Virus record (IMG/VR): IMGVR_UViG_3300006893_000001
Origin: a virus
Direction: 5' to 3' (one strand)
DNA: 64,000 nt
In this document: positions 1,431 to 34,671 of the stretch, piece by piece
How the letters are laid out: each line of letters begins with the position of its first letter
How positions within the stretch are numbered: position 1 is the first letter of the stretch
Program-made: the position numbers and the translations under genes
The notes under the pieces: model-generated
What the model saw: only the letters and a program-made list of their open reading frames with translations
Database searches by the model: none
What the model was told of the DNA's origin: nothing

Positions 1431-1446
1431 TGCGACGTACGTCGCT
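1431..1446. promoter_or_regulatory. operator-like inverted repeat TGCGACGTACGTCGCT
   Basis: Contains perfect 14-bp palindrome GCGACGTACGTCGC; the 30-mer TGCGACGTACGTCGCTTnGAAGATTAAnAT recurs at 3893. Confidence 0.55.
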
Positions 1447-1476
1447 TCGAAGATTAAAATCAGATTAAGTCTTCAA

Positions 1477-1492
1477 TGCGACTTTAGTCGTA
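1477..1492. promoter_or_regulatory. degenerate operator-like repeat TGCGACTTTAGTCGTA
   Basis: Matches TGCGAC-N4-GTCGyA; overlaps the stop codon of 1484..1813. Confidence 0.35.
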
Positions 1493-1813: not shown

Positions 1814-1998
1814 TTCGACTCCTCCGTTAATGCGAATCTTGCTGCATCCGAACGTACTCGTTTGCCAGAACAAGGAAGTGTTAAACCAAAACGACGAATC
1901 ATACACACTAATGTGTAATAATGTGAACCGTAAGCTTCAGCAATAGACATCGATGTATAGACTTTGTTCTTGTGAAACTTGCTGCTTAGGACTGACAT
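1810..1998 (-). CDS. hypothetical protein (62 aa)
   Basis: TGATG overlap with GAT-like gene stop and ATGA overlap with the next gene; no domain recognised. Confidence 0.45.
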   Translation of the reverse strand: MSVLSSKFHKNKVYTSMSIAEAYGSHYYTLVCMIRRFGLTLPCSGKRVRSDAARFALTEESK

Positions 1999-2786
1999 CA
2001 GATTACTCCTTGATGATTGATGAGCGCGATGTTTCGGCGAAGCAACACAGATTTGCGTCCGTCTCTGGTTGCTTGCTCGTATCCAACTTTGTCACGATTC
2101 TTCGCGATGTAGTTGCGAACGTATGCGAGTTCGTGTCCAGACAATCCGCAATACCAGGGATTTCGTCCATCCCATGAATCCTTGACCTTCGCGAACCGAT
2201 TCGTCTTGACTTTGTGACGATAGTTCATCTGCGTGATTTGACGCGGCGTGAAACTATCGTCGTTCGAATACCAACAACCGTCGAACCAAAGTCCGAATTG
2301 CTCGTTGACTATTCGAAGACTTTCCTTCGTGACAACGACCAATTTGTTGTGATAACCGACTTTGATTCGATTAGCGAGTTCGTTGAAGAACAAATCGTCG
2401 TTCATTATGTCATTCGATTGCTCGAAGACAGGACGAAGAATCATGTTTGCAAGAGTCCACGTGTCTGATTTCGTGTCGTCGAGCATTTCGATGTTGCGTA
2501 TGATTCCATTATGGAACAACCAAGCATCCGTCGTGATTTCGAATGGATGAGTCATTTCGATGGTTTTGACTCCACGAGTTGCCCATCGCATGTGAATAAC
2601 ACATTCCTCGTTCTTGTGTCGATTATACGACTGAACGAGTTCGTTCGTATCAAAACCACGCTCGACAACGATTCCATTGTCGGTTTTTGCGAGCAAACCC
2701 CATCCATGAGGATTTTGCTTGTTTGCGTTCGCGAGAGTCTTGTTATTGACTCTGCGATTCTTCGGTTTTACGATGATGAGACACAT
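1998..2786 (-). CDS. class II (Ntn, Cys1) glutamine amidotransferase-like thiol peptidase, paralog 1
   Basis: MCLIIVKP N-terminal nucleophile, NPHGWG, HMRWATRG..THPF, LFHNG; directly downstream of amidoligase. Confidence 0.8.
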   Translation of the reverse strand: MCLIIVKPKNRRVNNKTLANANKQNPHGWGLLAKTDNGIVVERGFDTNELVQSYNRHKNEECVIHMRWATRGVKTIEMTHPFEITTDAWLFHNGIIRNIEMLDDTKSDTWTLANMILRPVFEQSNDIMNDDLFFNELANRIKVGYHNKLVVVTKESLRIVNEQFGLWFDGCWYSNDDSFTPRQITQMNYRHKVKTNRFAKVKDSWDGRNPWYCGLSGHELAYVRNYIAKNRDKVGYEQATRDGRKSVLLRRNIALINHQGVI

Positions 2787-2790
2787 GTTC

Positions 2791-3795
2791 TTAGTTTCCT
2801 CTTACGCAGCGAAGTCTTTCGACTGCACGACGTTCTAATTCTGTTCCAGTGAGTACGTTTCCTTGTGTCGTTACGAACCTGCCTTCGCACTGTTCGAAAT
2901 ACCATCTTATGTAGAGTCTGCGAGAGTAGTTCGATTCTGGCATTCCATTCGTGTTGACGTAGTTTCTAACTTGTGCTGTTGTTGGATTTGAACCACGTCC
3001 ATTTGCAGGCATGATTCTTGCATTCAACGATACTCGATTCGTTCGTGCCACAACTTCTGTCGTCGTTTCAAACCTAGCAAATCGTTCTGATGCATTTGCT
3101 ATTCTCGCAACTAAGTCTGGATATTCAGTCGCATGTTCTTTCACGAAAGCAATGAATGCTTTCGGCGAATCAAGTCGACGTCCATCCTCTTTGCAATATT
3201 CCGCAACTGCGTGAGCGAAGTCAATGTCTGCTAACATTTGTTCTTTTGTATTCGTCGATGCAAACTGGCGAAATTCGACTGTTCCTGGTTTTTGTGTATT
3301 CAGTACAGCGTAACGAGTTGTCGTCCGACCACGACGAATTGATGCAGACACACGTTGTGGCGTCATTCTTTGGCAAAAATGATTTGATTTACGTCTTGCA
3401 ATAGTTGTCGTAAAGTCTGCATTGTTTCGATGGTTCATGAAAACAAGCATTCTGTTTATTTGCTGCATCGACAAAGCAGATTTTGACATGTGAATGTGAA
3501 GTCCACAAGATGCAGAACGTTGATACTTTTCGAGTGGAAGTAGATGATGAACGAATGCTTTTGCGTCGTTCTTCTTCATTGGAACACTGATAACTTCGAC
3601 ACCATTCAAACCTATCGAACCATCTTGTTCGCAGACGAATTTCGTTTGGTCTTTGTTGCCGAGTTCGTCGAGCAAATCTTCTCTCGACGTCGATGACATA
3701 ACTTCGTTTTCGATTCCGAAATACATTTCGCCACGGTTTAATGAGACAAGATTTGCAGGATTGATTCCGTGATAACCGTGAAGTTGTGCTCGCAT
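2791..3795 (-). CDS. Amidoligase_2-type (glutamine synthetase-like) carboxylate-amine ligase, paralog 1
   Basis: FGIENEV, DGSIGLNGVEVISVP, CGLHIHMS, TVEFRQFASTN motifs; SD GAGAAAGGA before ATG. Confidence 0.8.
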   Translation of the reverse strand: MRAQLHGYHGINPANLVSLNRGEMYFGIENEVMSSTSREDLLDELGNKDQTKFVCEQDGSIGLNGVEVISVPMKKNDAKAFVHHLLPLEKYQRSASCGLHIHMSKSALSMQQINRMLVFMNHRNNADFTTTIARRKSNHFCQRMTPQRVSASIRRGRTTTRYAVLNTQKPGTVEFRQFASTNTKEQMLADIDFAHAVAEYCKEDGRRLDSPKAFIAFVKEHATEYPDLVARIANASERFARFETTTEVVARTNRVSLNARIMPANGRGSNPTTAQVRNYVNTNGMPESNYSRRLYIRWYFEQCEGRFVTTQGNVLTGTELERRAVERLRCVRGN

Positions 3796-3861: not shown

Positions 3862-3877
3862 TATGACGTACGTCGCA
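3862..3877. promoter_or_regulatory. operator-like inverted repeat TATGACGTACGTCGCA
   Basis: Half of a 16-bp-arm inverted repeat with 3893..3908; centre-to-centre 31 bp. Confidence 0.55.
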
Positions 3878-3892
3878 GCAGATTTTCCTTGC

Positions 3893-3908
3893 TGCGACGT
3901 ACGTCGCT
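3893..3908. promoter_or_regulatory. operator-like inverted repeat TGCGACGTACGTCGCT
   Basis: Perfect 14-bp palindrome GCGACGTACGTCGC; about 100 nt upstream of amidoligase-1 start. Confidence 0.6.
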
Positions 3909-3986
3909 TAGAAGATTAAGATTGGATTAAAATTCTGGGTTACGGCAAACGTCGCAATTAAGGGGCTCTATGCGATAACTTGTCTC

Positions 3987-4034: not shown

Positions 4035-4163
4035 ATGGCGAAGAGAGCTTGTGCCGAATACGATGTCGTATGGAACGGCAAACGGTATTCAGTGGTTGAA
4101 CGCCTCCGTTTGCGACAAAAGTCGCAAATGACGCTTTCGACTGCGATAAAAGTCGCAAAGTGA
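4035..4163 (+). CDS. small basic hypothetical protein (42 aa)
   Basis: ATG with GAAAGG 9 nt upstream; body contains both operator copies 4111 and 4142, so coding status is uncertain. Confidence 0.3.
   Translation: MAKRACAEYDVVWNGKRYSVVERLRLRQKSQMTLSTAIKVAK
4111..4126. promoter_or_regulatory. operator-like inverted repeat TGCGACAAAAGTCGCA
   Basis: Perfect 6-bp arms with 4-bp spacer; paired with 4142..4157 at 31 bp. Confidence 0.6.
4142..4157. promoter_or_regulatory. operator-like inverted repeat TGCGATAAAAGTCGCA
   Basis: 5 of 6 arm positions complementary; same N4 spacer (AAAA) as 4111. Confidence 0.55.
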
Positions 4164-8583: not shown

Positions 8584-8703
8584 ATGTTAGCAACAATCAT
8601 TCAATACGTAATCATCGGCTTTGGCTTCGGGATTGGATTCGCTCTCGGAACTGGACTCGTTGGTGCGGTGCTTAGTCTCACGAATCGTAAGGGTAACAAG
8701 TGA
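8584..8703 (+). CDS. Gly-rich membrane peptide (39 aa)
   Basis: VIIGFGFGIGFALGTGLVGAVL; GTGA overlap with the next gene. Confidence 0.4.
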   Translation: MLATIIQYVIIGFGFGIGFALGTGLVGAVLSLTNRKGNK

Positions 8704-9206
8704 AAACCGTTTACGCAGCTGGCCCTATTACGGGTATCAGCTATGGCGTGTCGACGTCGTGGCGCACAGAGTTACAGAAGCTACTTCCATTCAATGACGT
8801 AGTTATCATGTCACCGTTGCGCTCTAAGACATACCTCGCCGGTGAAACGGAAATCAAAGACCACTACGACCAAATTATGTCGACTCAGCGCGGCATCACA
8901 ACTCGTGACCGTTGGGACTGCATGTCGTGTGACGCCGTGGTCATCAATCTTCTCGGCGCTGGTCGAGTCTCAATTGGTACAATGATTGAGGTTGGCTGGT
9001 GCGACTCACGACGTATCCCTATCATCTTGGTGATGGAGGAGGAAGGCAACATTCACGAACATGCAATGCTTCGTGAGTGCTCCTCATTCAGAGTTAAGAC
9101 GCTGGCTGAAGCTGCTCATGTAATCAGCTCGCTCTTCAACCTCAGATGTGAGACGTGTGGAAAGTATCACAACGATTCCGAGTTCTGCGCGCCTGCTAAA
9201 ATATAA
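8700..9206 (+). CDS. nucleoside 2-deoxyribosyltransferase / DNPH1-like protein
   Basis: VYAAGPITG start, GTMIEVGWCDSRRIPIILV; C-terminal CxxC...C tail; GTG start. Confidence 0.55.
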   Translation: MKTVYAAGPITGISYGVSTSWRTELQKLLPFNDVVIMSPLRSKTYLAGETEIKDHYDQIMSTQRGITTRDRWDCMSCDAVVINLLGAGRVSIGTMIEVGWCDSRRIPIILVMEEEGNIHEHAMLRECSSFRVKTLAEAAHVISSLFNLRCETCGKYHNDSEFCAPAKI

Positions 9207-10891: not shown

Positions 10892-11482
10892 ATGGCAACT
10901 ATGAAAGAACGCGCAAGAGTCGCGGTTGAAGGTTATCCTGGAAGTACAGCATCGCAAATTGCGAAGCTCATTGGTGAGCGACGTATGTCTAATGGTTATG
11001 GCACGACGTCATCTGCTCTTGTGAAGCTCGCTCACGCTGGTCTCGTATTCCGTAAAGAAGACGCTAAGGGAACTTGGCGCTACTATCCACCGCGTACGGC
11101 ATACGTGGGTGATGGTCCAGAAACTGCAGCTCCACGTCGTAAAGAAGCACCAGTTGTCGCAATTCAACAAACAAAGTGTAACTCTACGTGTAAATGCAAA
11201 GAACCACATATTCATCAAGCCGTTACTACGCACAAACCCGTCGACAAATTCTTGCTAGAGATTCCGATGGACCCAGAGGCAAAAGCTCGTATGCAGATTC
11301 GCAAGGGTGTCGAGCGCATCGCTGCCCTTACGCAGCTTGAGCACCGGCTTGAAGATAAGATTCGTTGGTTCCTATCAGAAGGCGAACGACGTAACGACCA
11401 ACTAGGTATCAAAGAAGTCGCTGCATTCGCTGCTCTCGAGGTAGAGCGTTGGCTCAATGACTATAAACTCCTATTCCCCTGA
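10892..11482 (+). CDS. winged-helix (MarR-like) DNA-binding protein, candidate regulator
   Basis: GSTASQIAKLIGE...SSALVKLAHAGLVFRKEDAKGTWRYY resembles an HTH plus wing; C-terminal coiled coil. Confidence 0.5.
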   Translation: MATMKERARVAVEGYPGSTASQIAKLIGERRMSNGYGTTSSALVKLAHAGLVFRKEDAKGTWRYYPPRTAYVGDGPETAAPRRKEAPVVAIQQTKCNSTCKCKEPHIHQAVTTHKPVDKFLLEIPMDPEAKARMQIRKGVERIAALTQLEHRLEDKIRWFLSEGERRNDQLGIKEVAAFAALEVERWLNDYKLLFP

Positions 11483-11651: not shown

Positions 11652-11667
11652 TGCGACTTATGTCGCA
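11652..11667. promoter_or_regulatory. operator-like inverted repeat TGCGACTTATGTCGCA
   Basis: Perfect 6-bp arms; ends 1 nt before the -35 hexamer. Confidence 0.6.
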
Positions 11668-11668
11668 G

Positions 11669-11697
11669 TTTGCAGCGAAGTCTTAATCTGGTATAAT
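11669..11697 (+). promoter_or_regulatory. sigma70-like promoter TTTGCA-N17-TATAAT
   Basis: Consensus -10 and near-consensus -35 with optimal spacer; 42 nt upstream of amidoligase-2. Confidence 0.7.
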
Positions 11698-11739
11698 TGT
11701 AATCGTCAGACCCGACGGTAAATAGGAAGGGGCACAAAG

Positions 11740-13089
11740 TTGCCGCAACTGGAAATTCACGGCTATCATGGCTCAAATGCCCTGCATCTTTTAGGCCGTG
11801 GCGAAGTTCTCGACCCAAAGATTCCCCACTTCGGAATAGAGCTCGAAATGAATCCAGGACCCGATACAAATCGGGCCTCGCTTATGACTGAGCTTTATGC
11901 AAAATTCCACGGGACTGATGGTCGAGCATCCAGGTCGTTTACATGCCAACGCGATGGCTCTGTTCCAAACGGCATCGAAATCATCAGCCGCCCGCTTACG
12001 TTCCAAGCGTCCCTCGAGTTCTTAGACGACCTGCTACCGTTGCAGAATGGTACCGACGAATATCAGCGTCTTCGTGCGTGCGGAATGCATGTCCATATAT
12101 CACGTAGTGCTTTGTCTCAGAATCAGCTCGGGCGTATGGTGCTATTCGTGCACAGTCCACCGATGTTCGACTTCATGAGCAGAGTGGCTCGTCGTCAACT
12201 AACTAATCATTTTTGCCGCGCAGGTCAAAAGAGGTCGTGGTTGCAAGGGTTTACGGAGTTAACGCCACACCAACGTCAGGCAGTTAAGACTCGCATAACT
12301 GGCCTTGATTATCGAGGACGGATACAAAATCATGGAAAGTATCAAGCGCTGAACACAGAACGGCGCGACACAATTGAAGTCAGAATGTTTGCATCTACGA
12401 ATGACCCATTATATGCTAAGTCGAACATTGAGTTCTGCGAGGCGATGCTGACATACTGCAAGCCTATGGTGAGTCCACTCAAAGATTTAGTGATACCGCA
12501 CAAGTTCATCGATTTCGTGACTAGTAATCGGATGGCGTATCCTAGTCTCTCTGAGCGCTTCGGTTATCGAGACCGCTTCGGCGAGTTCTATGAGTTTCCA
12601 GTGACAGCATCAGGTCGTCCACGCAGACCACGAACCGACGTATCTGGACTGCCACGCGGTCAGCGTACTATGAGAATCACTCCAGCAGGACTTGAAGGAC
12701 ACGACGCTGAAGTAGCAGCAGCATTACGTTTTAACACAGAACGACTGGCAACTGAAGCAGCTATGAACTTAGACAGGTCAATAGCAGCGAGTATGGTTGC
12801 AACAAGTCAGCATCCAAGGTATCGTCGAGCCACGGTTCCGGCGGCGCGACGAATGCCTGGTATAGTGGACTTCGGAGTAGCACTTGGCGGAGGCTCGCGC
12901 CCACATACTACAGAGATTCGAGCATACGTTGCTGAGCATGGAATGCCGGTAGGATATAGACGACGTCGCGAATACCTCGAGTGGTACCGGCAACTATGCA
13001 ACAACAGATTTGTCACGGCTCGTGGCAATGTCTTGACGGGTGACGAACTCAGCCGTCGAGCAATTGAGCGCTTGCGTTGCGCTAGGTAA
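11740..13089 (+). CDS. Amidoligase_2-type carboxylate-amine ligase, paralog 2 (449 aa)
   Basis: TTG start after AGGAAGGGG; FGIELEM, DGSVPNGIEIISRP, CGMHVHIS, TIEVRMFASTN. Confidence 0.8.
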   Translation: MPQLEIHGYHGSNALHLLGRGEVLDPKIPHFGIELEMNPGPDTNRASLMTELYAKFHGTDGRASRSFTCQRDGSVPNGIEIISRPLTFQASLEFLDDLLPLQNGTDEYQRLRACGMHVHISRSALSQNQLGRMVLFVHSPPMFDFMSRVARRQLTNHFCRAGQKRSWLQGFTELTPHQRQAVKTRITGLDYRGRIQNHGKYQALNTERRDTIEVRMFASTNDPLYAKSNIEFCEAMLTYCKPMVSPLKDLVIPHKFIDFVTSNRMAYPSLSERFGYRDRFGEFYEFPVTASGRPRRPRTDVSGLPRGQRTMRITPAGLEGHDAEVAAALRFNTERLATEAAMNLDRSIAASMVATSQHPRYRRATVPAARRMPGIVDFGVALGGGSRPHTTEIRAYVAEHGMPVGYRRRREYLEWYRQLCNNRFVTARGNVLTGDELSRRAIERLRCAR

Positions 13090-13100
13090 GAAAGGAAACT

Positions 13101-14060
13101 ATGTGCGTTATTATTGTTAAACCAGTCGACAAGCAAGTCGAGTTCAAGACTTTGCGGCAAGCCAACAAGGCTAATCCGCATGGCTGGGGTGTGCTTGCGA
13201 AGACTCCTGAAGGAATGGTTGTGACCAAAGGCTGGTCTGGCACCAAACTATGCGAAGCTTATGCGAAGTATAAGCAATATGAGCAAGTCATCCACTGCCG
13301 TATAGGAACCTGTGGTATCCTCGACGAACGCAACATCCACCCATTTGCGGTGGACGACGCTTCGACTACCTACTTGTTTCATAACGGCGGTATGCTGAAC
13401 GTCAACCGGCATAACCCGGACTTCAATGACACGTGGCATTTTGCACGATTGATTCAGAAGCCTGTGGAGAAATATCCAGACCTTTTGGAAAATCCGGAGT
13501 TCTACAAGTACTTGCAGGAGTTTGCCGGTGGGTCTCACAAGTTCGTCATCGTGACCGCGGGCAAAACTGTGATTGTCAACGAAGGCCTTGGCCGGTGGGT
13601 CAACGGATGCTGGCACTCGAATATGTCGGCTCTACAGTGTCGCGCGCAAGTCAAACCACGGTGGCAGAAGCAAATCAATAACAATCTACGCTACTTCAAC
13701 AACTTAACGCCGCTCAACACAGATGTGCCACATCTGATAGACGATTGGACACCAGACTCAGGTCCATGGTACGACGGGCTTACGAACATCGAACAGGACT
13801 TTGTCCATAAGACTATCGTTGCAAACCATAGTCAAGTTGACGGATACGAACGCTACATCGAAACCATCAAGAACGCTCGCGATGAAGTCTTTCGGCTTCG
13901 TATGCAGGCAGCCACAGAGACGAATATGGTCTCACCAACGCAGCTTCCGCTCGTGGCGTTGCGTTCCGCGGGTCGACGTAATAGATTCAAACGAGGAAAT
14001 CGTCCTACTAAAACATCGGCCATTGTGCCGGTAGAAGCGAGAATCGTATATGGAGACTAG
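13101..14060 (+). CDS. class II (Ntn, Cys1) GAT-like thiol peptidase, paralog 2 (319 aa)
   Basis: MCVIIVKP, NPHGWG, HCRIGTCG..IHPF, LFHNG; GAAAGGAAA SD. Confidence 0.8.
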   Translation: MCVIIVKPVDKQVEFKTLRQANKANPHGWGVLAKTPEGMVVTKGWSGTKLCEAYAKYKQYEQVIHCRIGTCGILDERNIHPFAVDDASTTYLFHNGGMLNVNRHNPDFNDTWHFARLIQKPVEKYPDLLENPEFYKYLQEFAGGSHKFVIVTAGKTVIVNEGLGRWVNGCWHSNMSALQCRAQVKPRWQKQINNNLRYFNNLTPLNTDVPHLIDDWTPDSGPWYDGLTNIEQDFVHKTIVANHSQVDGYERYIETIKNARDEVFRLRMQAATETNMVSPTQLPLVALRSAGRRNRFKRGNRPTKTSAIVPVEARIVYGD

Positions 14061-14526
14061 AGCATTCGGCATTGACTACTTCGGCTTCGGCGATAAGCAA
14101 GAGGATGTGCTAGAGCTTATCAAACTAAACGGCGATAAGCGAATCCCACAGTCGACAGTGGATTTCTACAAGAATCCCGATGGTTCGGGTGTAGTGGTTC
14201 GCGCCTTCTATCAAGGACGACTCATTGGCTTCAGCGCCTCAGCACTAATGGAGCCAGGACACTCTATCACAGTCATTGACCGCGACTTCCGTGGTTGGGG
14301 AATAGGCTCGTCTCTGCTTGCCAAGAAGCTGCGCCTCTGCCGCACAAAGGCATACGTGGCTGAGGATAACGCTGGTTCCATCCGAATCTGTGAACGGGTT
14401 GGAATGGTGGTTACTGGTCGGCGACTTGGGCGTCGACAATCAGGTGACTTCACACAAGTCGTCTATGAGTTCAAGTCTAAGAAGGGAATTATGGCATGGC
14501 TCGAAAAGTTACTACCGACGGGTTAA
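14050..14526 (+). CDS. GNAT-family N-acyltransferase
   Basis: Acyl-CoA motif A FRGWGIGSSLL; overlaps upstream gene by 11 nt. Confidence 0.75.
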   Translation: METRAFGIDYFGFGDKQEDVLELIKLNGDKRIPQSTVDFYKNPDGSGVVVRAFYQGRLIGFSASALMEPGHSITVIDRDFRGWGIGSSLLAKKLRLCRTKAYVAEDNAGSIRICERVGMVVTGRRLGRRQSGDFTQVVYEFKSKKGIMAWLEKLLPTG

Positions 14527-14756
14527 GCGTCAAAGAAGCTGCGTTTGTAACGTTTCTGAATAACTTCAGAGCGCCAAAGCTTGAGTACTTCACTGTTCCT
14601 TGGGGCCGCGATGAGTTTATGTCATACTACGAGAAGCGTAGACTTGACCCAGCCAAGGTCGATGAATGGGTCGATATGGCAATTCGATACGCCTGCGATG
14701 GCAGGACCATTGAAGAGTACGCGAAGATATGGAGAAAACGCAATGTCCCTGCCTGA
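14496..14756 (+). CDS. hypothetical protein (86 aa)
   Basis: ORF track; overlaps both neighbours. Confidence 0.5.
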   Translation: MARKVTTDGLSVKEAAFVTFLNNFRAPKLEYFTVPWGRDEFMSYYEKRRLDPAKVDEWVDMAIRYACDGRTIEEYAKIWRKRNVPA

Positions 14757-15282
14757 TTACTTCGAACAAGGCAGCTATCGGTATCTATTAACTCGAACAC
14801 TGCCAGATGTTCCGCTTGCATTCTCGAAGGAACGAACACTGCTCTACATCATGCTAAATCCATCTACCGCGGATGATACGGTTGATGACCCGACAATACG
14901 GCGCTGCGTAGGACAGGCTCGAGCGTGGGACTTCAACCGCATTCGGGTCGTGAATTTGTTTGCTCAGCGAGCCACAAATCCAAAGGACCTCGAGCCCGTA
15001 TCCTCAGTAGGCATGCACAACGACTCAATTATGCACCGAGTTTTAGATGAAGTTGACATGGTTGTAGCCGCTTGGGGAAACCCTGTTGGGAAGTTCAGAA
15101 AGCAGATGAAGATTGACTTCGGGATACAGGTGGCTAGTACCATTAGGACAGTAACGGAACGCATGGACTTATACTGCCTCGAGGTTCTACGGTCAGGCCA
15201 GCCCAAACATCCGCTGTATTGTCGTCGAAAAGAGAGGGGTTTACTTTACCAACGCAAAAGGGTAGAATCGGTCCTAGTGTAG
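14743..15282 (+). CDS. DUF1643-family protein
   Basis: Start trimmed to MSLPDYF; YRYLLTR, LYIMLNPSTAD, DPTIRRC, VNLFA, AAWGN, PKHPLY match the DUF1643 pattern. Confidence 0.75.
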   Translation: MSLPDYFEQGSYRYLLTRTLPDVPLAFSKERTLLYIMLNPSTADDTVDDPTIRRCVGQARAWDFNRIRVVNLFAQRATNPKDLEPVSSVGMHNDSIMHRVLDEVDMVVAAWGNPVGKFRKQMKIDFGIQVASTIRTVTERMDLYCLEVLRSGQPKHPLYCRRKERGLLYQRKRVESVLV

Positions 15283-15340: not shown

Positions 15341-15414
15341 TGGGAAGTAGTGTAGCGGCAACACGCGTGGTTTGGGACCATGTATTGCGGGTTCGACTCC
15401 TGTCTTTCCAACCA
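15341..15414 (+). tRNA. tRNA-Pro (anticodon UGG)
   Basis: Acceptor TGGGAAG/CTTTCCA, anticodon loop TTTGGGA, T-loop TTCGACT, CCA encoded. Confidence 0.85.
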
Positions 15415-15421
15415 TAACATC

Positions 15422-15450
15422 CTCGGCCTTGCGTGCAATGCCGAGTTTTT
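15422..15450 (+). terminator. terminator-like hairpin inside the tRNA array
   Basis: CTCGGC-N12-GCCGAG (inner TTG/CAA pairs) followed by TTTTT; abuts tRNA-Phe start. Confidence 0.5.
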
Positions 15451-15524
15451 GTCGGGACAGCTCAAAGGTAGAGCATCGGTCTGAAAAGCCGAGGGTCTTG
15501 GTTCGATTCCAAGTCGCGACACCA
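15451..15524 (+). tRNA. tRNA-Phe (anticodon GAA)
   Basis: Anticodon stem TCGGT/GCCGA, loop CTGAAAA, T-arm CTTGG-TTCGATT-CCAAG, CCA encoded; one acceptor mismatch. Confidence 0.85.
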
Positions 15525-15528
15525 ATAT

Positions 15529-15605
15529 GCCCGAGTAGCCCAATTGGAAGAGGCGTTGGTCTTAGAAACCAAGCGTTACAGGTTCGAGTCCTGTGTCGGG
15601 TACCA
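15529..15605 (+). tRNA. tRNA with Leu anticodon UAG but class-I (5-nt) variable loop
   Basis: Loop CTTAGAA, stem TTGGT/ACCAA, Leu-like 3-bp D stem TAGCCCAATTGGAAGAGGC, A73, CCA; no long extra arm. Confidence 0.65.
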
Positions 15606-15608
15606 AAT

Positions 15609-15682
15609 GGTTCTGTTGCATAATGGAAGTGCATGCCCCTGTCCAGGGTAAAGCGCGGGTTCGATTCCCGCCAGAATCGCCA
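15609..15682 (+). tRNA. tRNA-Asp (anticodon GUC)
   Basis: Acceptor GGTTCTG/CAGAATC, loop CTGTCCA, T-arm GCGGG-TTCGATT-CCCGC, CCA encoded. Confidence 0.85.
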
Positions 15683-15683
15683 T

Positions 15684-15757
15684 GGGGATTTCGTTCAACG
15701 GCAGGACCACTGCCTTGCAAGCAGTGTATTAGGGTTCGATTCCCTAAGTCTCCACCA
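15684..15757 (+). tRNA. tRNA-Ala (anticodon UGC)
   Basis: Stem ACTGC/GCAGT, loop CTTGCAA, T-arm TAGGG-TTCGATT-CCCTA, CCA encoded. Confidence 0.85.
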
Positions 15758-15761
15758 ATGT

Positions 15762-15835
15762 TGTCTTGTAGTATAAGGGCATTACGGTCGGCTGTTAACC
15801 GACTTATGAGGGTTCGAGTCCTTCCGAGACAGCCA
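15762..15835 (+). tRNA. tRNA-Asn (anticodon GUU)
   Basis: Stem GTCGG/CCGAC, loop CTGTTAA, T-loop TTCGAGT, CCA encoded. Confidence 0.85.
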
Positions 15836-15836
15836 T

Positions 15837-15908
15837 GCCCTTATAGCTCAGTAGGAAGAGCGTCAGTCTTGTAAACTGATGAGGCCGGTTCGAATCCGGA
15901 CTGGGGCT
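15837..15908 (+). tRNA. tRNA-Thr (anticodon UGU)
   Basis: GCTCAGTAGGAAGAGC D-arm, stem TCAGT/ACTGA, loop CTTGTAA; two mismatches at the acceptor base; no encoded CCA. Confidence 0.75.
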
Positions 15909-15910
15909 CC

Positions 15911-15988
15911 GCACGCTTGATGTTTAACGGACAAGCATGTCTGCCTTCCAAGCAGAACGAACGGGTTCGAATCCCGTAGTGTGCTCCA
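15911..15988 (+). tRNA. tRNA-Gly (anticodon UCC)
   Basis: Acceptor GCACGCT/AGTGTGC, stem TCTGC/GCAGA, loop CTTCCAA, enlarged D region, CCA encoded. Confidence 0.8.
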
Positions 15989-16000
15989 AGTTTAGAAAAT

Positions 16001-16050
16001 GTTTCCGTTCGGCTCGCGACTGTACGGAAGCCAGGAGCCGCGAGCTCCTG
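16001..16050 (+). ncRNA. structured spacer RNA of unknown function (possible pseudoknot)
   Basis: 8-bp helix 16001-08/16024-31; 7-bp hairpin 16032-38/16044-50; loop 16011-18 can alternatively pair with 16039-46 (8 bp). Confidence 0.35.
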
Positions 16051-16053
16051 TGA

Positions 16054-16125
16054 TGCAGGGTCTTAAGGCAAGACCGCGGTCTCATAAGCCGCCGGGTTGA
16101 GGTTCGAGTCCTCTCTCTGCAACCA
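16054..16125 (+). tRNA. tRNA with CAU anticodon (Met or Ile2), compact D-arm
   Basis: Acceptor TGCAGGG/CTCTGCA, stem GCGGT/GCCGC, loop CTCATAA, T-loop TTCGAGT, CCA; only 15 nt between acceptor and anticodon stems. Confidence 0.65.
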
Positions 16126-16126
16126 T

Positions 16127-16198
16127 GGTAGAGATAGTGTAGTGGCAGCACGGCAGGCTGTGAACCTGTTGGCTAGGGTTCGATTCCCGACTTTACCC
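16127..16198 (+). tRNA. tRNA-His (anticodon GUG)
   Basis: Acceptor GGTAGAG/CTTTACC, loop CTGTGAA, discriminator C; nucleotide -1 is T, so no encoded G-1. Confidence 0.8.
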
Positions 16199-16204
16199 CA
16201 ATGT

Positions 16205-16279
16205 ACGCTCGTGGTATAACGGATGTGCCTCCGGCTACGAACCGGTTGTATGCGGGTTCGATTCCTGTCGAGCGTGCCA
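16205..16279 (+). tRNA. tRNA-Arg (anticodon ACG)
   Basis: Perfect acceptor ACGCTCG/CGAGCGT, loop CTACGAA, CCA encoded. Confidence 0.85.
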
Positions 16280-16280
16280 T

Positions 16281-16355
16281 AACTCCTTCGCCAAGTGGGA
16301 AGGCGGCGGTCTGCAAAACCGCCAAGAGCGGGTTCGATTCCCGCAGGAGTTTCCA
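16281..16355 (+). tRNA. tRNA-Cys (anticodon GCA)
   Basis: Perfect acceptor AACTCCT/AGGAGTT, stem GCGGT/ACCGC, loop CTGCAAA, CCA encoded. Confidence 0.85.
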
Positions 16356-16356
16356 T

Positions 16357-16447
16357 GTAGAGGTAGTCCAAGTGGCTGAAGGCATCCGGCTGTAACCCGG
16401 ATACGTCGCAAGGCGTCTCGTTGGTTCGAATCCAACTCTCTACACCA
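16357..16447 (+). tRNA. tRNA-Tyr (anticodon GUA), class II
   Basis: Stem TCCGG/CCGGA, loop CTGTAAC, long variable arm, CCA encoded. Confidence 0.85.
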
Positions 16448-16448
16448 C

Positions 16449-16540
16449 GGATGTTTGTCTGAGAGGTTGAAGGTGGTCGCCCGCTAAGCGACTTAGGTAG
16501 TAAAGTGCCTACGGAGGTTCGAATCCTCCAACATCCGCCA
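16449..16540 (+). tRNA. tRNA-Ser (anticodon GCU), class II
   Basis: Perfect acceptor GGATGTT/AACATCC, loop CCGCTAA (C at position 33), long variable arm, CCA. Confidence 0.8.
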
Positions 16541-16545
16541 AGTTT

Positions 16546-16631
16546 GGATGATGCCGCTGAATGGTCGGCGAACGGTCTTGAAAACCGTGGGGACTGAAAG
16601 GTTCGGGGTTCGATTCCTCAATCATCCGCCA
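16546..16631 (+). tRNA. tRNA-Ser (anticodon UGA), class II
   Basis: Perfect acceptor GGATGAT/ATCATCC, stem ACGGT/ACCGT, loop CTTGAAA, long variable arm, CCA. Confidence 0.85.
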
Positions 16632-16633
16632 AT

Positions 16634-16709
16634 GCGCTTGTAGCCCAACGGCAGAGGCAGCGGCTTCAAAACCCGCTCAGTAGTGGTTCAAATCCACTCT
16701 TGCGCACCA
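16634..16709 (+). tRNA. tRNA with Leu anticodon CAA but class-I (5-nt) variable loop
   Basis: Loop TTCAAAA closed by a C-C mismatch, D-arm TAGCCCAACGGCAGAGGC like 15529 tRNA, A73, CCA; two T-T acceptor mismatches. Confidence 0.6.
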
Positions 16710-16712
16710 TGT

Positions 16713-16787
16713 ACTCCGTTCGTCTAACTGGCAGGACGGCTGACTCTGAATCAGTAAATCGGGGTTCGAATCCCTGATGGAGTGCCA
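16713..16787 (+). tRNA. tRNA-Gln (anticodon CUG)
   Basis: Acceptor ACTCCGT/ATGGAGT, loop CTCTGAA, CCA; near-duplicate of the next tRNA. Confidence 0.85.
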
Positions 16788-16791
16788 ATGT

Positions 16792-16866
16792 ACTGGGTTC
16801 GTCTAACTGGCAGGACGGTGGACTTTGAATCCACCTATCGTGGTTCGAATCCATGACCCAGTGCCA
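16792..16866 (+). tRNA. tRNA-Gln (anticodon UUG)
   Basis: Perfect acceptor ACTGGGT/ACCCAGT, stem GTGGA/TCCAC, loop CTTTGAA, CCA. Confidence 0.85.
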
Positions 16867-16869
16867 AAT

Positions 16870-16941
16870 ATCGTCGTGGTATAACGGATGTGCCTCCGCC
16901 TTCTAAGCGGAACGATGCGGGTTCGACTCCTGCCGACGATG
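16870..16941 (+). tRNA. tRNA-Arg (anticodon UCU)
   Basis: Perfect acceptor ATCGTCG/CGACGAT, stem TCCGC/GCGGA, loop CTTCTAA; no CCA. Confidence 0.85.
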
Positions 16942-16944
16942 CAT

Positions 16945-17020
16945 ACTCGGGTAGCTTAGTGGCTAAAGCGCCTGTCCTACAAACAGGTTAGCGGAGGTTC
17001 GACTCCTCTTCCGAGTACCA
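16945..17020 (+). tRNA. tRNA-Val (anticodon UAC)
   Basis: Stem CCTGT/ACAGG, loop CCTACAA (C at position 33), T-arm GGAGG-TTCGACT-CCTCT, CCA. Confidence 0.8.
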
Positions 17021-17021
17021 T

Positions 17022-17096
17022 ACCTGTGTGGCGCAATGGCAGCGCAACCGGCTTTTAACCGGATGGTTGCGGGTTCAAGTCCCGCTGCAGGTACCA
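17022..17096 (+). tRNA. tRNA-Lys (anticodon UUU)
   Basis: Loop CTTTTAA, T-arm GCGGG-TTCAAGT-CCCGC, CCA. Confidence 0.85.
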
Positions 17097-17097
17097 T

Positions 17098-17169
17098 GCT
17101 CGCGTGGCGCAATGGCAGCGCAGCCGGCTCTTAACCGGATGGTTGTAGGTTCGACTCCTACTGTGAGCA
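17098..17169 (+). tRNA. tRNA-Lys (anticodon CUU)
   Basis: Loop CTCTTAA; body nearly identical to the previous Lys tRNA; no CCA. Confidence 0.85.
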
Positions 17170-17175
17170 CATTAT

Positions 17176-17248
17176 ACTGGAGTAGCTAAATGGTTACGGC
17201 ACACGCCTGATAAGCGTGGGATTGATGGTTCGAATCCATCCTTCAGTA
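17176..17248 (+). tRNA. tRNA-Ile (anticodon GAU)
   Basis: Stem CACGC/GCGTG, loop CTGATAA, T-arm GATGG-TTCGAAT-CCATC. Confidence 0.85.
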
Positions 17249-17249
17249 C

Positions 17250-17322
17250 ACTAGGATAGCACAACGGTCAGTGCTCCAGGCTTATATCCTGGTCGATGTT
17301 GGTTCGAATCCAGCTCCTAGTA
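17250..17322 (+). tRNA. tRNA-Ile (anticodon UAU)
   Basis: Perfect acceptor ACTAGGA/TCCTAGT, stem CCAGG/CCTGG, loop CTTATAT. Confidence 0.8.
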
Positions 17323-17329
17323 CAGATTT

Positions 17330-17401
17330 GTTGGCGTAGTGTAACGGTAACACAGCAGCCTCTCAGACTGCGAAATTCGGGTTCAAATCCCGACGCTAAT
17401 A
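17330..17401 (+). tRNA. tRNA-Glu (anticodon CUC)
   Basis: D-arm GTGT-AACGGTA-ACAC, loop CTCTCAG with a C-A closing mismatch, T-loop TTCAAAT. Confidence 0.75.
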
Positions 17402-17402
17402 C

Positions 17403-17473
17403 GTTGACATGATGTAATGGAAACATCCTGCCCTTTCAAGGCGGTCATCCGGGTTCGAATCCCGGTGTCAATG
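17403..17473 (+). tRNA. tRNA-Glu (anticodon UUC)
   Basis: Acceptor GTTGACA/TGTCAAT, stem CTGCC/GGCGG, loop CTTTCAA. Confidence 0.85.
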
Positions 17474-17474
17474 C

Positions 17475-17545
17475 GGGCTGGGCGCTGAGCGCAGACGAGC
17501 CTCCAAAGCTTGTCGTGCTGGGTTCAATTCCTAGACGGCCCGCCA
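17475..17545 (+). tRNA. tRNA-Trp (anticodon CCA), compact D-arm
   Basis: Stem CGAGC/GCTTG, loop CTCCAAA, T-arm CTGGG-TTCAATT-CCTAG, CCA; D region only 14 nt (GCGC-TGA-GCGC). Confidence 0.7.
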
Positions 17546-21643: not shown

Positions 21644-21801
21644 TGCCTCGACCTGATAATATTCGATCGTGCGATTGGCCTGAAGATTATTCTCATGAAA
21701 ACGGGAACTATGAGTGCGAATGTTGTTATTGCCATGTTCACTTCAAGGGGCATAAACGACGTGTTGTTTGCAAAGTTTGTGCAGAACGGAGAAAACGATG
21801 A
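21643..21801 (+). CDS. Cys-rich small protein (52 aa)
   Basis: TAATG and ATGA coupling; CECCYCHVH...CKVC. Confidence 0.4.
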   Translation: MPRPDNIRSCDWPEDYSHENGNYECECCYCHVHFKGHKRRVVCKVCAERRKR

Positions 21802-22238
21802 GACCATCATGGGACGAAACGTTTCTTAGGGTTTGCGAAATCATGAAGGAGCGTGGTACATGTCAGCGACTCCAAGTTGGTGCTGCAGTTGTCAAAGGTT
21901 GTCGTATCATCTCGACGGGATACAACGGCGCACCCAGAAGCCTTGAGCATTGTCATCACGATTTGTATAATGGCCATGCACAAGACGACCCACATTTAGT
22001 AGGTGGACATTGTGCTAACGCAGAACACGCTGAGTCCAATGCACTAATGGTTGCGGGCGAACGAGCTGACGGAGCGACGCTCTACTCCACCGTGAGTCCC
22101 TGCCTCAATTGCATGAGACTCGCCGTCACCGCGGGCATCAAGCGTATCGTATTCGCTGAATGGTTCCGCAAGACAGAACCATCTAAGGCTTTAGCCGCAG
22201 CTGCAGGAATCCAATTGTCGCATGTCCTCATCCCGTAA
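21798..22238 (+). CDS. dCMP deaminase (CMP/dCMP zinc deaminase family)
   Basis: Start trimmed to MRPSWDETF; HAESNAL and PCLNC zinc-binding motifs. Confidence 0.85.
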   Translation: MRPSWDETFLRVCEIMKERGTCQRLQVGAAVVKGCRIISTGYNGAPRSLEHCHHDLYNGHAQDDPHLVGGHCANAEHAESNALMVAGERADGATLYSTVSPCLNCMRLAVTAGIKRIVFAEWFRKTEPSKALAAAAGIQLSHVLIP

Positions 22239-23751: not shown

Positions 23752-23759
23752 TTGTAATG

Positions 23760-23788
23760 TTTACAAATCGCCACAATTGAGGTATGAT
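23760..23788 (+). promoter_or_regulatory. sigma70-like promoter TTTACA-N17-TATGAT
   Basis: Good hexamers and spacer in the 194-nt gap after the SNF2 gene. Confidence 0.6.
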
Positions 23789-23945
23789 AAACCAGTGAAA
23801 AGCTTAACCGCGTACACGTTGTTTGGATTCATGGCGACTAACGCTAAAATCATCAACGTCCTAGCCAGAATACAATGCAAAAATGTTCGTTAAGTTTCTG
23901 GCAGCAATCAAGTCCTACTAAGTCTGGTCTTGAAAAGAGTAAATT

Positions 23946-24275
23946 ATGAAACCGAGGGTCTATGCCCTTAACTATCTTGGGCACGATATTTCTGACGCCG
24001 AACGCTTCACCGACGAACCAGTTATTTTTCTCACCGAAGGTTCCGTCAATATCTTCTACCCAGACCGACTTGCTTACGACATTGCGAAGAAGCTCCACGA
24101 TTTCCAACAAGACGATTACATCCTCATCTCCGGTTCACCCGTCATCGCGATGATTGCTATGGGTGTACTTAAGGAGACGTTTAAGTTTAAGACCATCAAT
24201 GTTCTCATCTACAACGTCAAGAAGGGCGAATATGTAGCTCGCCGAATCTCTGGAGCAGTGGCGCGTGGATACTAA
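23946..24275 (+). CDS. hypothetical protein (109 aa)
   Basis: ORF track. Confidence 0.6.
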   Translation: MKPRVYALNYLGHDISDAERFTDEPVIFLTEGSVNIFYPDRLAYDIAKKLHDFQQDDYILISGSPVIAMIAMGVLKETFKFKTINVLIYNVKKGEYVARRISGAVARGY

Positions 24276-24780: not shown

Positions 24781-25085
24781 AAGGTGACCGTTCGACGTAC
24801 ATGTGGCATTGCGATGACGAATACTGCGACTGTTCGCGTCCTATAATTGTTGAAGATACCGGCAACGTGCTCGCAATACATTTACCTAAAGCAGGTAATT
24901 TGTTCAGAACCATATACGACGGCGAATGGGTATCTGAATGTGATGGTCCGGATTACGTAGACTATATAGACCAGCTTTCTAAATGGAAAGAAGCCTGTAT
25001 AGAGTTCGAAGTAGAATTTCCTAAAGATGCCGAGAGAAAACTGTGCTATTATCAAAATCAAGTCGCTCGCGGTGTACATCTATGA
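24777..25085 (+). CDS. hypothetical protein (102 aa)
   Basis: ORF track; ATGA coupling. Confidence 0.55.
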   Translation: MKGDRSTYMWHCDDEYCDCSRPIIVEDTGNVLAIHLPKAGNLFRTIYDGEWVSECDGPDYVDYIDQLSKWKEACIEFEVEFPKDAERKLCYYQNQVARGVHL

Positions 25086-26090: not shown

Positions 26091-26097
26091 CGTGTTG

Positions 26098-33419: not shown

Positions 33420-33788
33420 ATGCAAATGCGATATACGTCGCATTCTACAGGGTTCCCGAACCTAGCAAAATCCTGGTATGTTATAGGCATGTCTTCAGCA
33501 GCGCAGTGCAAACCAGAACCGGTTACCTTCGATTGGAACGCCCGTTGGTGGTATACCACATTTGCAATCGGATACAAACAAACATCCGAGACACCACGTC
33601 AACCGGACTTCCTTTGTGTCAAGGGTGGTTTCAAACGAGTGCAAGACGCTGTAGAATATCTGGTAAACATTCCAGGTCTCGAAGTGGAGACACTTCGCCA
33701 CGGTCTCACCGTTGTGCAGTTTGCTGGCATGGGACCAAGGTCTGGAGAGTTGTGCTACGTCGATTCACTTAAGAAAGGGAAATCGTAA
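33420..33788 (+). CDS. hypothetical protein (122 aa; start may be 33489)
   Basis: ORF track; first 8 codons overlap the operator, so the internal ATG (MSSAAQ) is plausible. Confidence 0.5.
   Translation: MQMRYTSHSTGFPNLAKSWYVIGMSSAAQCKPEPVTFDWNARWWYTTFAIGYKQTSETPRQPDFLCVKGGFKRVQDAVEYLVNIPGLEVETLRHGLTVVQFAGMGPRSGELCYVDSLKKGKS
33427..33442. promoter_or_regulatory. operator-like inverted repeat TGCGATATACGTCGCA
   Basis: Same motif family; followed by TCTACA-N16-CAAAAT with the geometry seen at 11652. Confidence 0.5.
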
Positions 33789-34038: not shown

Positions 34039-34126
34039 CGTAGCCTTCACAATAGGACTGATTGGTACGATAGTTTCGGCTGTTGCGCTTATCATTCTTG
34101 CAATATACGAAAGGAATAAACGATGA
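34025..34126 (+). CDS. single-pass membrane peptide (33 aa)
   Basis: FTIGLIGTIVSAVALIILAIY; ATGA coupling to the GGCT gene. Confidence 0.4.
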   Translation: MQPVDVAFTIGLIGTIVSAVALIILAIYERNKR

Positions 34127-34671
34127 TTAGACTATTCACCTACGGCACACTGATGCGCGGCGAAGGTAACTACCATCGTATGGAAAAGCAAACGTTCCTT
34201 AGTCGTGGCCGCACCGAAGGTCGACTATTCACCAATGAGTCTTATCCATACTTCCGTCCCGGACGGAACCAAGGTACGGTACTTGGTGAAATCTTTGAAA
34301 TTGACGACCAATGCCTCGCAGGTCTAGACTCAATGGAGCTCAATTCTGGGTATACCCGTGAAACGATTTTGGTCGACCTGTACGATGTTGCGGACTGCCG
34401 TGTAATGACGATAGAATGCCAAGTTTACGTTGGACCAGAACGCGTCGAGCAGCAATATCGTCTAATCGAGGACGGTAACTATTCTAAGGACAATGCACGA
34501 GTTCGCGAAGAGCAACGCCTGGACCCAGATGAATGCGAAGGTTGCCAGATAGAACAAGACGATAACATTGAGTGGGCTTGTGCAGCGTGTGGGCAATGCG
34601 GAGATTGCTGTGGAGATAGAGACAATCCGCTCTCATGCGAACACGCTGCTATGGGTTCAAGTTATGGATAG
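34123..34671 (+). CDS. gamma-glutamylcyclotransferase (GGCT/AIG2-like) with Cys-rich C-terminal tail
   Basis: FTYGTLMRGEGN, YPYF, VLGEIFEI; tail CEGCQ...CAACGQCGDCCGD. Confidence 0.75.
   Translation: MIRLFTYGTLMRGEGNYHRMEKQTFLSRGRTEGRLFTNESYPYFRPGRNQGTVLGEIFEIDDQCLAGLDSMELNSGYTRETILVDLYDVADCRVMTIECQVYVGPERVEQQYRLIEDGNYSKDNARVREEQRLDPDECEGCQIEQDDNIEWACAACGQCGDCCGDRDNPLSCEHAAMGSSYG

Follow-up and report, generated by a model that had tools for sequence, protein, structure and literature searches.

A probable two-gene amidoligase module in a tightly packed gene unit of an uncultured tRNA-rich myovirus

Layout of the locus

The 64,000 nt long stretch of DNA analysed here, IMG/VR virus record IMGVR_UViG_3300006893_000001 and hereafter called the window, belongs to a phage with a contractile tail and encodes sheath and baseplate J proteins. 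At positions 11652-15282 it harbours five open reading frames (ORFs) between a palindrome with a predicted promoter and a large tRNA array. The first two ORFs encode an Amidoligase_2-type ligase (amidoligase-A) and a protein resembling class II glutamine amidotransferases (GAT-A), and these are followed by a GNAT, an ORF of 86 amino acids (aa) termed orf86, and a DUF1643 protein. On balance, we read 11652-15282 as a probable transcription unit under regulation, with closely packed genes, in an uncultured myovirus rich in tRNAs; only the first two genes would constitute a conserved functional module. The features of the locus are:

11652..11667, no strand: perfect palindrome TGCGAC-TTAT-GTCGCA, TGCGACTTATGTCGCA, directly 5′ of the -35 hexamer; predicted regulator-binding site
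11669..11697, + strand: predicted sigma-70-type promoter TTTGCA-N17-TATAAT with a TG extension, from a promoter scan
11740..13089, + strand: amidoligase-A, TTG start, 449 aa (six-frame listing)
13101..14060, + strand: GAT-A, ATG start, 319 aa, beginning MCVIIVKP
14050..14526, + strand: GNAT acyl-CoA N-acyltransferase, 158 aa; apparent lineage-specific cargo
14496..14756, + strand: orf86, putative coding gene overlapping both neighbours
14743..15282, + strand: DUF1643 protein, 179 aa from the ATG at 14743
15240..15268, + strand: second promoter-like site TTTACT-N17-TAGAAT, within the 3′ end of the DUF1643 gene and 73 nt before the first tRNA
15341..17545, + strand: tRNA array, 26 tRNAs called by ARAGORN and a tRNA-Ser(UGA) at 16546-16627

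An earlier note on this DNA, made from its letters, had described five ORFs with their motifs and overlaps, the promoter, the palindrome and a 58-nt gap to the first tRNA, and the six-frame listing and junction measurements agreed with all of these. From amidoligase-A through GAT-A, GNAT and orf86 to DUF1643 the junctions measured +11, -11, -31 and -14 nt, and the 58-nt gap separates the end of the DUF1643 gene from tRNA-Pro at 15341. Amidoligase-A carries the motifs FGIELE, DGS..GIEIIS, CGMHVHIS and IEVRMFASTN, GAT-A the motifs MCVIIVKP, NPHGWG, HPF and LFHNG, and the GNAT ORF the motif FRGWGIGSSL. The longest DUF1643 ORF runs from a TTG at 14581, and the gene caller uses the ATG at 14743, which is most likely the start. 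The gene calls of the source contig include orf86, which had no match in Pfam, PHROG or NCBIfam.

The same note had taken the five genes for a single transcription unit. The tight packing makes co-transcription plausible, as does the lack of any terminator-like element on the + strand between 11.6 and 17.5 kb. Two caveats apply to this part of the description: read-through into the unit is possible, since the terminator scan found no terminator-like site between it and the upstream + strand genes, and the internal promoter-like site at 15240..15268 could drive the tRNA array independently.

The array is a complete set, as had been stated, with 27 tRNAs covering all 20 amino acids, including Gln (n = 2), Glu (n = 2), Asn and Asp. 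The 27th tRNA, at 16546-16627, was missed by ARAGORN and added by Rfam; its anticodon loop CUUGAAA assigns it to Ser(UGA), and the Rfam tRNA-Sec model scored it at 42.7 bits, below the gathering score.

Conservation and duplication of the amidoligase and GAT-like pair

The locus was compared with 24 related loci harbouring a related amidoligase, taken from IMG/VR and homologue-encoding contigs, and with phage Marvin; BLAST-type searches were run against a set of phage records (n = 50,697). The GAT-like gene was the next gene after the amidoligase in 24 of 24 loci and in Marvin, covering about nine phage lineages. Adjacency of the pair was recorded in L001-L016, L021-L025, both pairs of the window (see below) and Marvin gp105/gp106, where L001-L012 represent one lineage and L014-L016 have the GAT gene between two ligases. 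The pair is adjacent also in MEP401/402 and MW202733. GNAT, orf86 and DUF1643 had no match in any of the 24 related loci or Marvin, and tblastn with GNAT and orf86 gave no match in the phage record set. Because the GAT-like gene follows the amidoligase in all of these loci and the other three genes do so in none, the pair looks like the conserved unit, and GNAT, orf86 and DUF1643 look like lineage-specific cargo sharing its promoter.

The window itself was found to contain a second copy of the pair and a gene of related function, which the earlier note had overlooked:

2791..3795, - strand: amidoligase-B, paralogue of amidoligase-A
1998..2786, - strand: GAT-B (MCLIIVKP), starting 4 nt after amidoligase-B
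34123..34671, + strand: AIG2-like gamma-glutamyl(amine) cyclotransferase (GGACT), PF06094 2.7e-20 and phrog_2520 1.3e-16

Amidoligase-A and -B have 33% identity in the catalytic domain and 53% in a C-terminal domain of about 70 aa that both possess (BLASTP 9e-44), and GAT-A and GAT-B are 36% identical over 254 aa (BLASTP 6e-49). The GGACT protein ends in an acidic Cys-rich tail. With the second pair and the AIG2/GGACT gene in the same window, the locus no longer reads as an operon of five genes but as a module of two genes, present in duplicate and accompanied by cargo, and the clean duplication of the two-gene unit argues for the pair as the functional unit.

The earlier proposal of one pathway served by all five genes, alone or together with the tRNAs, is not supported by this comparison, in which the pair alone recurs; GNAT, orf86 and DUF1643 accompanied the pair in none of the 24 loci, nor in Marvin. 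Among 11 pair-bearing loci scanned, tRNAs were found within the available sequence in one (L021, 14 tRNAs 4.6 kb upstream), and in StenR_269 two tRNAs lie inside the cluster of amidoligase, GAT and gamma-glutamyl cyclotransferase (GGCT) genes. The junction with the tRNAs is not a conserved feature, and the array is a neighbour. In L021 (1-9500) the 14 tRNAs, a gene for a Ro60/TROVE-domain protein and a resolvase gene lie upstream of the pair, and an RNase_T gene lies directly downstream.

The downstream genes

The GNAT matched Pfam PF00583 Acetyltransf_1 (E = 6.7e-6, 26.8 bits against a cut-off of 20.7) and has the RGWGIG motif for CoA pyrophosphate, which fits the R/Q-x-x-G-x-G/A pattern. The DUF1643 protein matched PF07799 (E = 1.2e-34, 119.6 bits against 22.5), and bacteria, archaea and phages together supplied 1396 homologues with E-values below 1e-10. 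Its gene stands alone in prophages and in 146 unrelated phage records; phiCbK and DLP3 have it two genes away from a DNA ligase gene, and a Pseudomonas prophage has it beside excisionase and integrase genes. An AlphaFold2 (AF2) model of DUF1643 with a predicted local distance difference test (pLDDT) score of 79 gave no significant Foldseek match in the PDB. A possible placement of DUF1643 in the uracil-DNA glycosylase (UDG) superfamily found no significant support: the best PDB match was an esterase (E = 0.03) and the E. coli UDG ranked 19th (E = 0.14, TM-score 0.32), significant BFVD matches were to other DUF1643 proteins only, and the profile matched nothing among PDB sequences.

Properties of the ligase and the GAT-like protein

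The domain identities given in the earlier note were correct. Pfam matched Amidoligase_2 (PF12224), GNAT and DUF1643, and the Cys1 class II GAT-like identity was recovered with a family profile.

Amidoligase-A matched PF12224 at E = 1.5e-9 (38.5 bits) and amidoligase-B at E = 3.2e-7 (30.9 bits), both against a cut-off of 22. Residues E34/E36, D72, S74, E80, H117/H119, R152 and E213/R215 were invariant in 11 sequences, and these positions correspond to the E-x-E, D..G.E, H-x-H and E-x-R active-site pattern. The protein consists of a GS/GCS-fold carboxylate-amine ligase domain (about 25-275), an Arg-rich linker (276-384) with an isoelectric point (pI) of 11.2, and a small, lineage-specific C-terminal domain (385-449). 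In the AF2 model the catalytic domain had a pLDDT of about 85, the linker was disordered, and the C-terminal domain was confidently predicted as two helices, a hairpin and a helix. Foldseek with this model matched YbdK (1r8g, 1.1e-4), followed by glutamine synthetase (GS; 8fbp and 5dm3), gamma-glutamylmethylamide synthetase (GmaS; 9qur) and Dop/PafA, with TM-scores that were low (about 0.3) because of the disordered linker. As modelled, amidoligase-A is an enzyme of glutamine-synthetase-like fold. As single sequences, the ligase, the GAT-like protein and DUF1643 matched no solved structure, and the ligase profile against PDB sequences returned zinc-ribbon noise only.

The linker and C-terminal domain of the ligase are strongly basic (pI 10.7-11.2), and the accessory regions of both proteins in the window are basic as well (pI 9.7-11.4). 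Accessory regions vary among lineages, and other clades have Cys-rich, zinc-ribbon-like extensions on both proteins. About four true representatives of the ligase C-terminal domain were found among 1.84 billion, all of them amidoligases, and the remaining matches were repeat artefacts; as a search for fusion partners of this domain, it gave no hint of function. A motif common to the C-termini of ligase and GAT (VRNYV/VRNYI) was dropped, its best E-value being about 0.1. In L014 (2233-5934) the order is ligase-GAT-ligase, and both ligases have Cys-rich N-terminal extensions resembling zinc ribbons.

GAT-A consists of a predicted Cys1 N-terminal-nucleophile (Ntn) class II GAT-like domain (1 to about 180) and a variable basic C-terminal region. 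The class II GAT-like nature that the earlier note had assigned to it is not reached by Pfam alone, where the single sequence scored 13.7 bits with GATase_4, below the cut-off of 23; GAT-B scored 23.4 bits, just above. A profile of 15 GAT family sequences did reach the GlmS glutaminase domain in the PDB (1xff, E = 2.7e-7), as well as PurF (2e-3) and two stand-alone class II GAT-like structures. The residues M1-C2, R67, T70, H80-P81, H94-N95-G96 and D110 were invariant in 15 of 15 sequences, and the GAT gene began with M-C or V-C in every locus. R67, T70 and H94-N95-G96 align to GlmS R73, T76 and H97-N98-G99, which provide glutamine binding and the oxyanion hole; D110 is the probable equivalent of GlmS D123, judged by spacing and not by alignment. 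Since the glutamine-binding and oxyanion residues are kept, the GAT-like protein should recognise a glutamine-like gamma-glutamyl amide. It may be a glutaminase or an EgtC-type gamma-glutamyl-X hydrolase, two activities that are not separable at the level of sequence.

A palindrome beside both pairs

The palindrome at 11652 belongs to a class, TGCGAC-N4-GTCGCA, with further sites in the window:

1431..1492: palindrome sites at 1431 and 1477
3862..3956, no strand: three TGCGAC-N4-GTCGCA-type sites in a divergent intergenic region, directly upstream of amidoligase-B
4111..4157, no strand: two palindrome sites 31 bp apart, upstream of a + strand early gene block
33427..33442, no strand: one palindrome site with 1 mismatch, at the start of ORF 33420-33788 and about 700 nt upstream of the GGACT gene

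At two mismatches or fewer the class had 14 sites against 3.8+/-1.9 expected, and 0 of 100 shuffles reached 14. The six closest matches all lie between genes or at a gene boundary, and a longer element, CTGCGACGTACGTCGCTTnGAAGATTAA, is common to 1430 and 3892. This distribution suggests that the palindrome is a real recurrent regulatory site defining a predicted phage regulon, and since palindromes adjoin both amidoligase and GAT pairs, one DNA-binding factor is suggested to control the two. The 11652 palindrome is centred about 44 nt before the point where transcription is predicted to start, so an activator site is as possible as an operator. Two genes upstream of this palindrome, 10892-11482 (+) encodes a 196-aa protein with a winged-helix-like N-terminus and no family match, a candidate that could be the regulator of the palindrome.

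Promoter matches numbered 15 against 9.9+/-3.8 expected in the region, where one match alone is not significant. The predicted promoter is made credible by the enrichment of the palindrome class and by the control region being kept in L013, the only close relative, a 3.9-kb contig with an amidoligase 57% identical to amidoligase-A. L013 retains the palindrome half-sites, a TGGTAnAAT box, and a leader with Shine-Dalgarno sequence and non-ATG start (MPQQIEVHGYHGSN; MPQ..HGYHGSN), in which the TTG start of amidoligase-A is a GTG. Between promoter and Shine-Dalgarno sequence, its leader (2075-2190) carries about 110 inserted nt that include a perfect 8-bp stem-loop, GGGAGCAG...CTGCTCCC; the window lacks this insertion.

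Genome context

The window also encodes a family-A DNA polymerase, an SNF2 helicase and a DUF3854 protein (866 aa). The polymerase was at most 27% identical to anything in the phage record set, and megablast with the operon found no match in the same set. The region 21768-28774 (+) contains genes for a dCMP deaminase, a MazG-like PRA-PH enzyme, a thymidylate-kinase-like protein and a 350-aa ThyA-fold protein, and two Nuc_deoxyrib_tr-like genes lie at 8700-9206 and 31988-32539. This nucleotide-metabolism set may reflect a non-canonical pyrimidine. The P-loop protein of 27053-27721 matched thymidylate kinase families only. Among the 48 ORFs of the window that were scanned, Pfam found no 5-hydroxymethyldeoxyuridine (5-hmdU) DNA kinase, aGPT-Pplase, pyridoxal phosphate (PLP) or radical S-adenosylmethionine (SAM) enzyme, and no ATP-grasp or PF14395 COOH-NH2_lig ligase; 9.6 kb of the 73.6-kb contig lies outside the window. 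PADLOC defence and anti-defence models and NCBIfam returned nothing informative.

Three consecutive genes at 23946-26090 (+) matched gp32-, gp33- and gp34-like proteins of cyanophage Pam3 (PF23992, PF23984 and PF23977), which hints at a distant relationship to the Pam3 group. A small protein encoded at 31654-31995 (+) had a weak match, below threshold, to the RING/U-box-type zinc finger PF13445 (5.3e-5), which is unusual in phage.

Proposed chemistry and its alternatives

By analogy with characterised enzymes, we favour, with moderate confidence, a reading of the module as a toolkit for writing and erasing gamma-glutamyl amides. The analysis itself provides the predicted folds, the catalytic residues, the linkage and duplication of the genes, and the conservation of promoter and palindrome, whereas the gamma-glutamyl chemistry, the order of reactions and the substrate are inferred. 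The ligase would use ATP to activate a carboxylate as an acyl-phosphate and would then join it to an amine. This carboxylate would most probably be the one at the gamma position of glutamate or of a glutamyl moiety, as GS, GmaS and PafA, which resemble the ligase model, activate the gamma-carboxylate of glutamate. The GAT-like partner would bind a glutamine-like gamma-glutamyl amide and cleave it by means of its N-terminal cysteine, and this cleavage might either trim or remove the gamma-glutamyl group after an intervening step or free ammonia from glutamine for the ligase. GGACT would offer a second route for taking gamma-glutamyl groups off amines. In a directed evolution study of a cultured Pseudomonas phage, two evolved lines carried independent missense changes in the amidoligase and the adjacent GAT (PMC11450229). 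This hints at selection on the pair in a cultured phage and is the sole experimental hint found.

Several points weigh against the reading given here, both in its chemistry and in its division into module and cargo. The gamma-glutamyl assignment is an analogy drawn with characterised GS-fold ligases and from the presence of GGACT, which lies 20 kb away, and a ligase and a hydrolase acting on one bond make a futile cycle unless some step intervenes. In contrast to LUZ24-type systems, the window showed neither an ATP-grasp nor a PF14395 ligase, and the source contig extends 9.6 kb beyond it. L013 ends 125 codons into the GAT gene, before the position of the GNAT. Because it ends before the downstream genes, the status of these as cargo rests on relatives whose amidoligase is at most 31% identical, so that their non-conservation is seen only against distant relatives. 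The 11-nt overlap between GAT and GNAT suggests translational coupling, and the GNAT could have been functionally recruited in this lineage.

The main rival is a two-subunit glutamine-dependent amidotransferase, in which the GAT would be a glutaminase passing ammonia to the ligase and a carboxylate would be converted to a carboxamide, by a logic like that of MurT/GatD, AsnB and GatCAB; a possible target would be a cell-wall or envelope precursor, whose modification could block superinfection. We regard it as unlikely, although the strict pairing fits it equally well. The strict order with gaps of 4-11 nt in about nine lineages is typical of obligate heteromers, each ligase copy has a GAT copy of its own, all the GlmS glutamine-binding residues are kept, and PMC10580990 cites a proposed cell-wall role for phiEco32. 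Ammonia transfer, however, gives no role to the recurrent GGACT/AIG2 genes; furthermore, the best Pfam match, GATase_4, comprises stand-alone proteins, and highly basic accessory domains are unexpected in an enzyme of envelope precursors. The recurrence of GGCT/AIG2 genes with these modules (in UFV-P2, StenR_269 and here) is the reason for favouring writing and erasing of gamma-glutamyl amides over pure ammonia transfer.

Hypermodification of a DNA base, one of the targets put forward in the earlier note, is unsupported and quite improbable, as neither a 5-hmdU DNA kinase nor an aGPT-Pplase was found in the window. In this scheme a modified pyrimidine would be made through the ThyA-fold enzyme, and the ligase/GAT pairs, with the GNAT, would decorate or trim a group on it that derives from an amino acid. 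It draws on the co-association of functionally unassigned amidoligase and glutaminotransferase genes with 5-HMUDK/aGPT-Pplase2 clusters in viromes (Lee et al. 2021, PMC8989533) and on the GNAT PaMx11 gp48, which acetylates a DNA base (PMC8989533). The ThyA-fold protein, dCMP deaminase, MazG-like enzyme and dNMP-kinase-like protein of the window, the basic linker and C-terminal domain of the ligase (pI 10.7-11.2), and the position of DUF1643 near DNA ligase in phiCbK and DLP3 are in line with it. PLP and radical-SAM enzymes are, however, likewise missing from the 48 ORFs searched with Pfam, the matches of the kinase-like protein are to thymidylate kinase families, 13 kb separate the pair from the ThyA-fold gene, and related loci have the pair with no thymidylate-synthase-like gene called in the flanks.

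A further speculative reading, to which we give little credence, has both pairs act on nucleic acid through the rare basic linker and C-terminal domain of the ligase. They would build or trim a gamma-glutamyl or amide group on a modified DNA pyrimidine by a route other than the known 5-hmdU kinase/aGPT-Pplase one, with the GNAT adding a cap, or would amidate residues on phage tRNAs. If true, this would give the first substrate for a module of many phage lineages.

Pup-like protein tagging, with the GAT deamidating or trimming the C-terminal Gln/Glu of a small tag or target and the ligase then making an isopeptide bond to a lysine of a host or phage protein, appears remote. Dop and PafA are among the structural matches, and COOH-NH2 ligases have been classed with peptide ligases of peptide- and protein-modifying systems by Aravind and co-workers (PMC4431377; PMC2938197). 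In the fold search, however, YbdK and GS come ahead of Dop/PafA, no conserved small ORF with a Gln/Glu C-terminus was seen beside the pair, and neither a proteasome nor a reader component turned up.

A role in processing the adjacent phage tRNAs or their charged forms, a target also put forward in the earlier note, is the most doubtful of all; the two pairs might, for example, serve as dedicated ligase/glutaminase enzymes that amidate Glu-tRNA(Gln) or Asp-tRNA(Asn), or a tRNA base might be modified. In its favour, the unit directly abuts a complete tRNA set with Gln (n = 2), Glu (n = 2), Asn and Asp, two other lineages have tRNAs no more than 5 kb from the module (L021, with its 14 tRNAs, Ro60/TROVE and RNase_T genes, and StenR_269, with two tRNAs), the accessory domains are basic, and the chemistry of GatCAB is ATP activation of the Glu gamma-carboxylate with a glutaminase. 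Against it, a tRNA was absent from 10 of the 11 scanned loci that carry the pair, the second pair is on the opposite strand at a distance of 11 kb from the array, no search showed similarity to GatB/GatE, TilS, TiaS or other tRNA enzymes, and phage tRNA genes are commonly found among early accessory genes.

Comparison with known systems

Transient gamma-glutamylation is known from the EgtA/EgtC (ergothioneine), PuuA/PuuD (putrescine) and BtrJ/BtrG (butirosin) pathways, where EgtC is a class II GAT-like Ntn enzyme, PuuD a class I GAT, BtrJ an ATP-grasp enzyme and BtrG a gamma-glutamyl cyclotransferase. The proposed chemistry resembles these in that an ATP-dependent ligase installs a gamma-glutamyl amide which a Cys amidohydrolase or a cyclotransferase later removes. 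The likeness is one of chemistry and not of demonstrated sequence-level orthology, and no intervening chemistry was found here. MurT/GatD and GatCAB share the adjacent ligase- or kinase-type and glutaminase subunits and the activation of a carboxylate by ATP; their folds differ, being Mur ligase with class I GAT, or GatB with amidase. Some thymidine hypermodification clusters hold amidoligase and glutaminotransferase genes and use GNAT tailoring (PMC8989533), and a ThyA-fold enzyme is present here, whereas the 5-hmdU DNA kinase and the amino-acid:DNA transferase of such clusters were not found in the window.

The closest known systems are those of other phages. The ligase/GAT-II/GGCT combination was predicted computationally by Iyer, Abhiman, Burroughs & Aravind 2009 (Mol Biosyst 5:1636), as cited in later papers. 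The system has been annotated in LUZ24-like phages (UFV-P2 ORF21-29), Marvin gp105/gp106, the marine OM43 phages MEP401/402, StenR_269 and Rhizobium RHph phages, and phiEco32 is cited as a further example in PMC10580990. UFV-P2 has COOH-NH2_lig, Amidoligase_2, GAT-II, ATP-grasp and AIG2 genes in one block. StenR_269 has a set of GGCT, GAT-II, a GS-like gene, an ATP-grasp gene and amidoligase, and RHph_N3_19 a similar gene set. Amidoligase_2 and class II GAT modules, often with a gamma-glutamyl cyclotransferase, populate the early regions of many unrelated phages. The prediction is more than 15 years old, and no substrate or product was found assigned to such modules in the literature searched, in agreement with what the earlier note had said of the substrate. 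The present phage is known from metagenomic contigs only, and as an instance it neither reveals the substrate nor makes the question directly testable.

The locus agrees with the known phage systems in its two gene families, in their order and in their direct adjacency, and it shares with them the retained Cys1, a GGCT-family gene in the genome, and a location among early or replication genes. It differs from them in having two paralogous pairs on opposite strands instead of one mixed cluster, a GGACT gene dispersed 20 kb away, a rare basic C-terminal domain on the ligases, the appended GNAT, orf86 and DUF1643 genes, and a unit that abuts a 27-tRNA array. Unlike the LUZ24-like phages it had no ATP-grasp or PF14395 ligase found in the window; the fetched Marvin and OM43-phage loci also have the pair only. 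The locus is accordingly a variant of a known phage module and not a new five-gene pathway. To that module the genome adds a clean natural duplication of the pair, a palindrome beside both copies, and a rare accessory domain of basic character, from which the type of target may be guessed.

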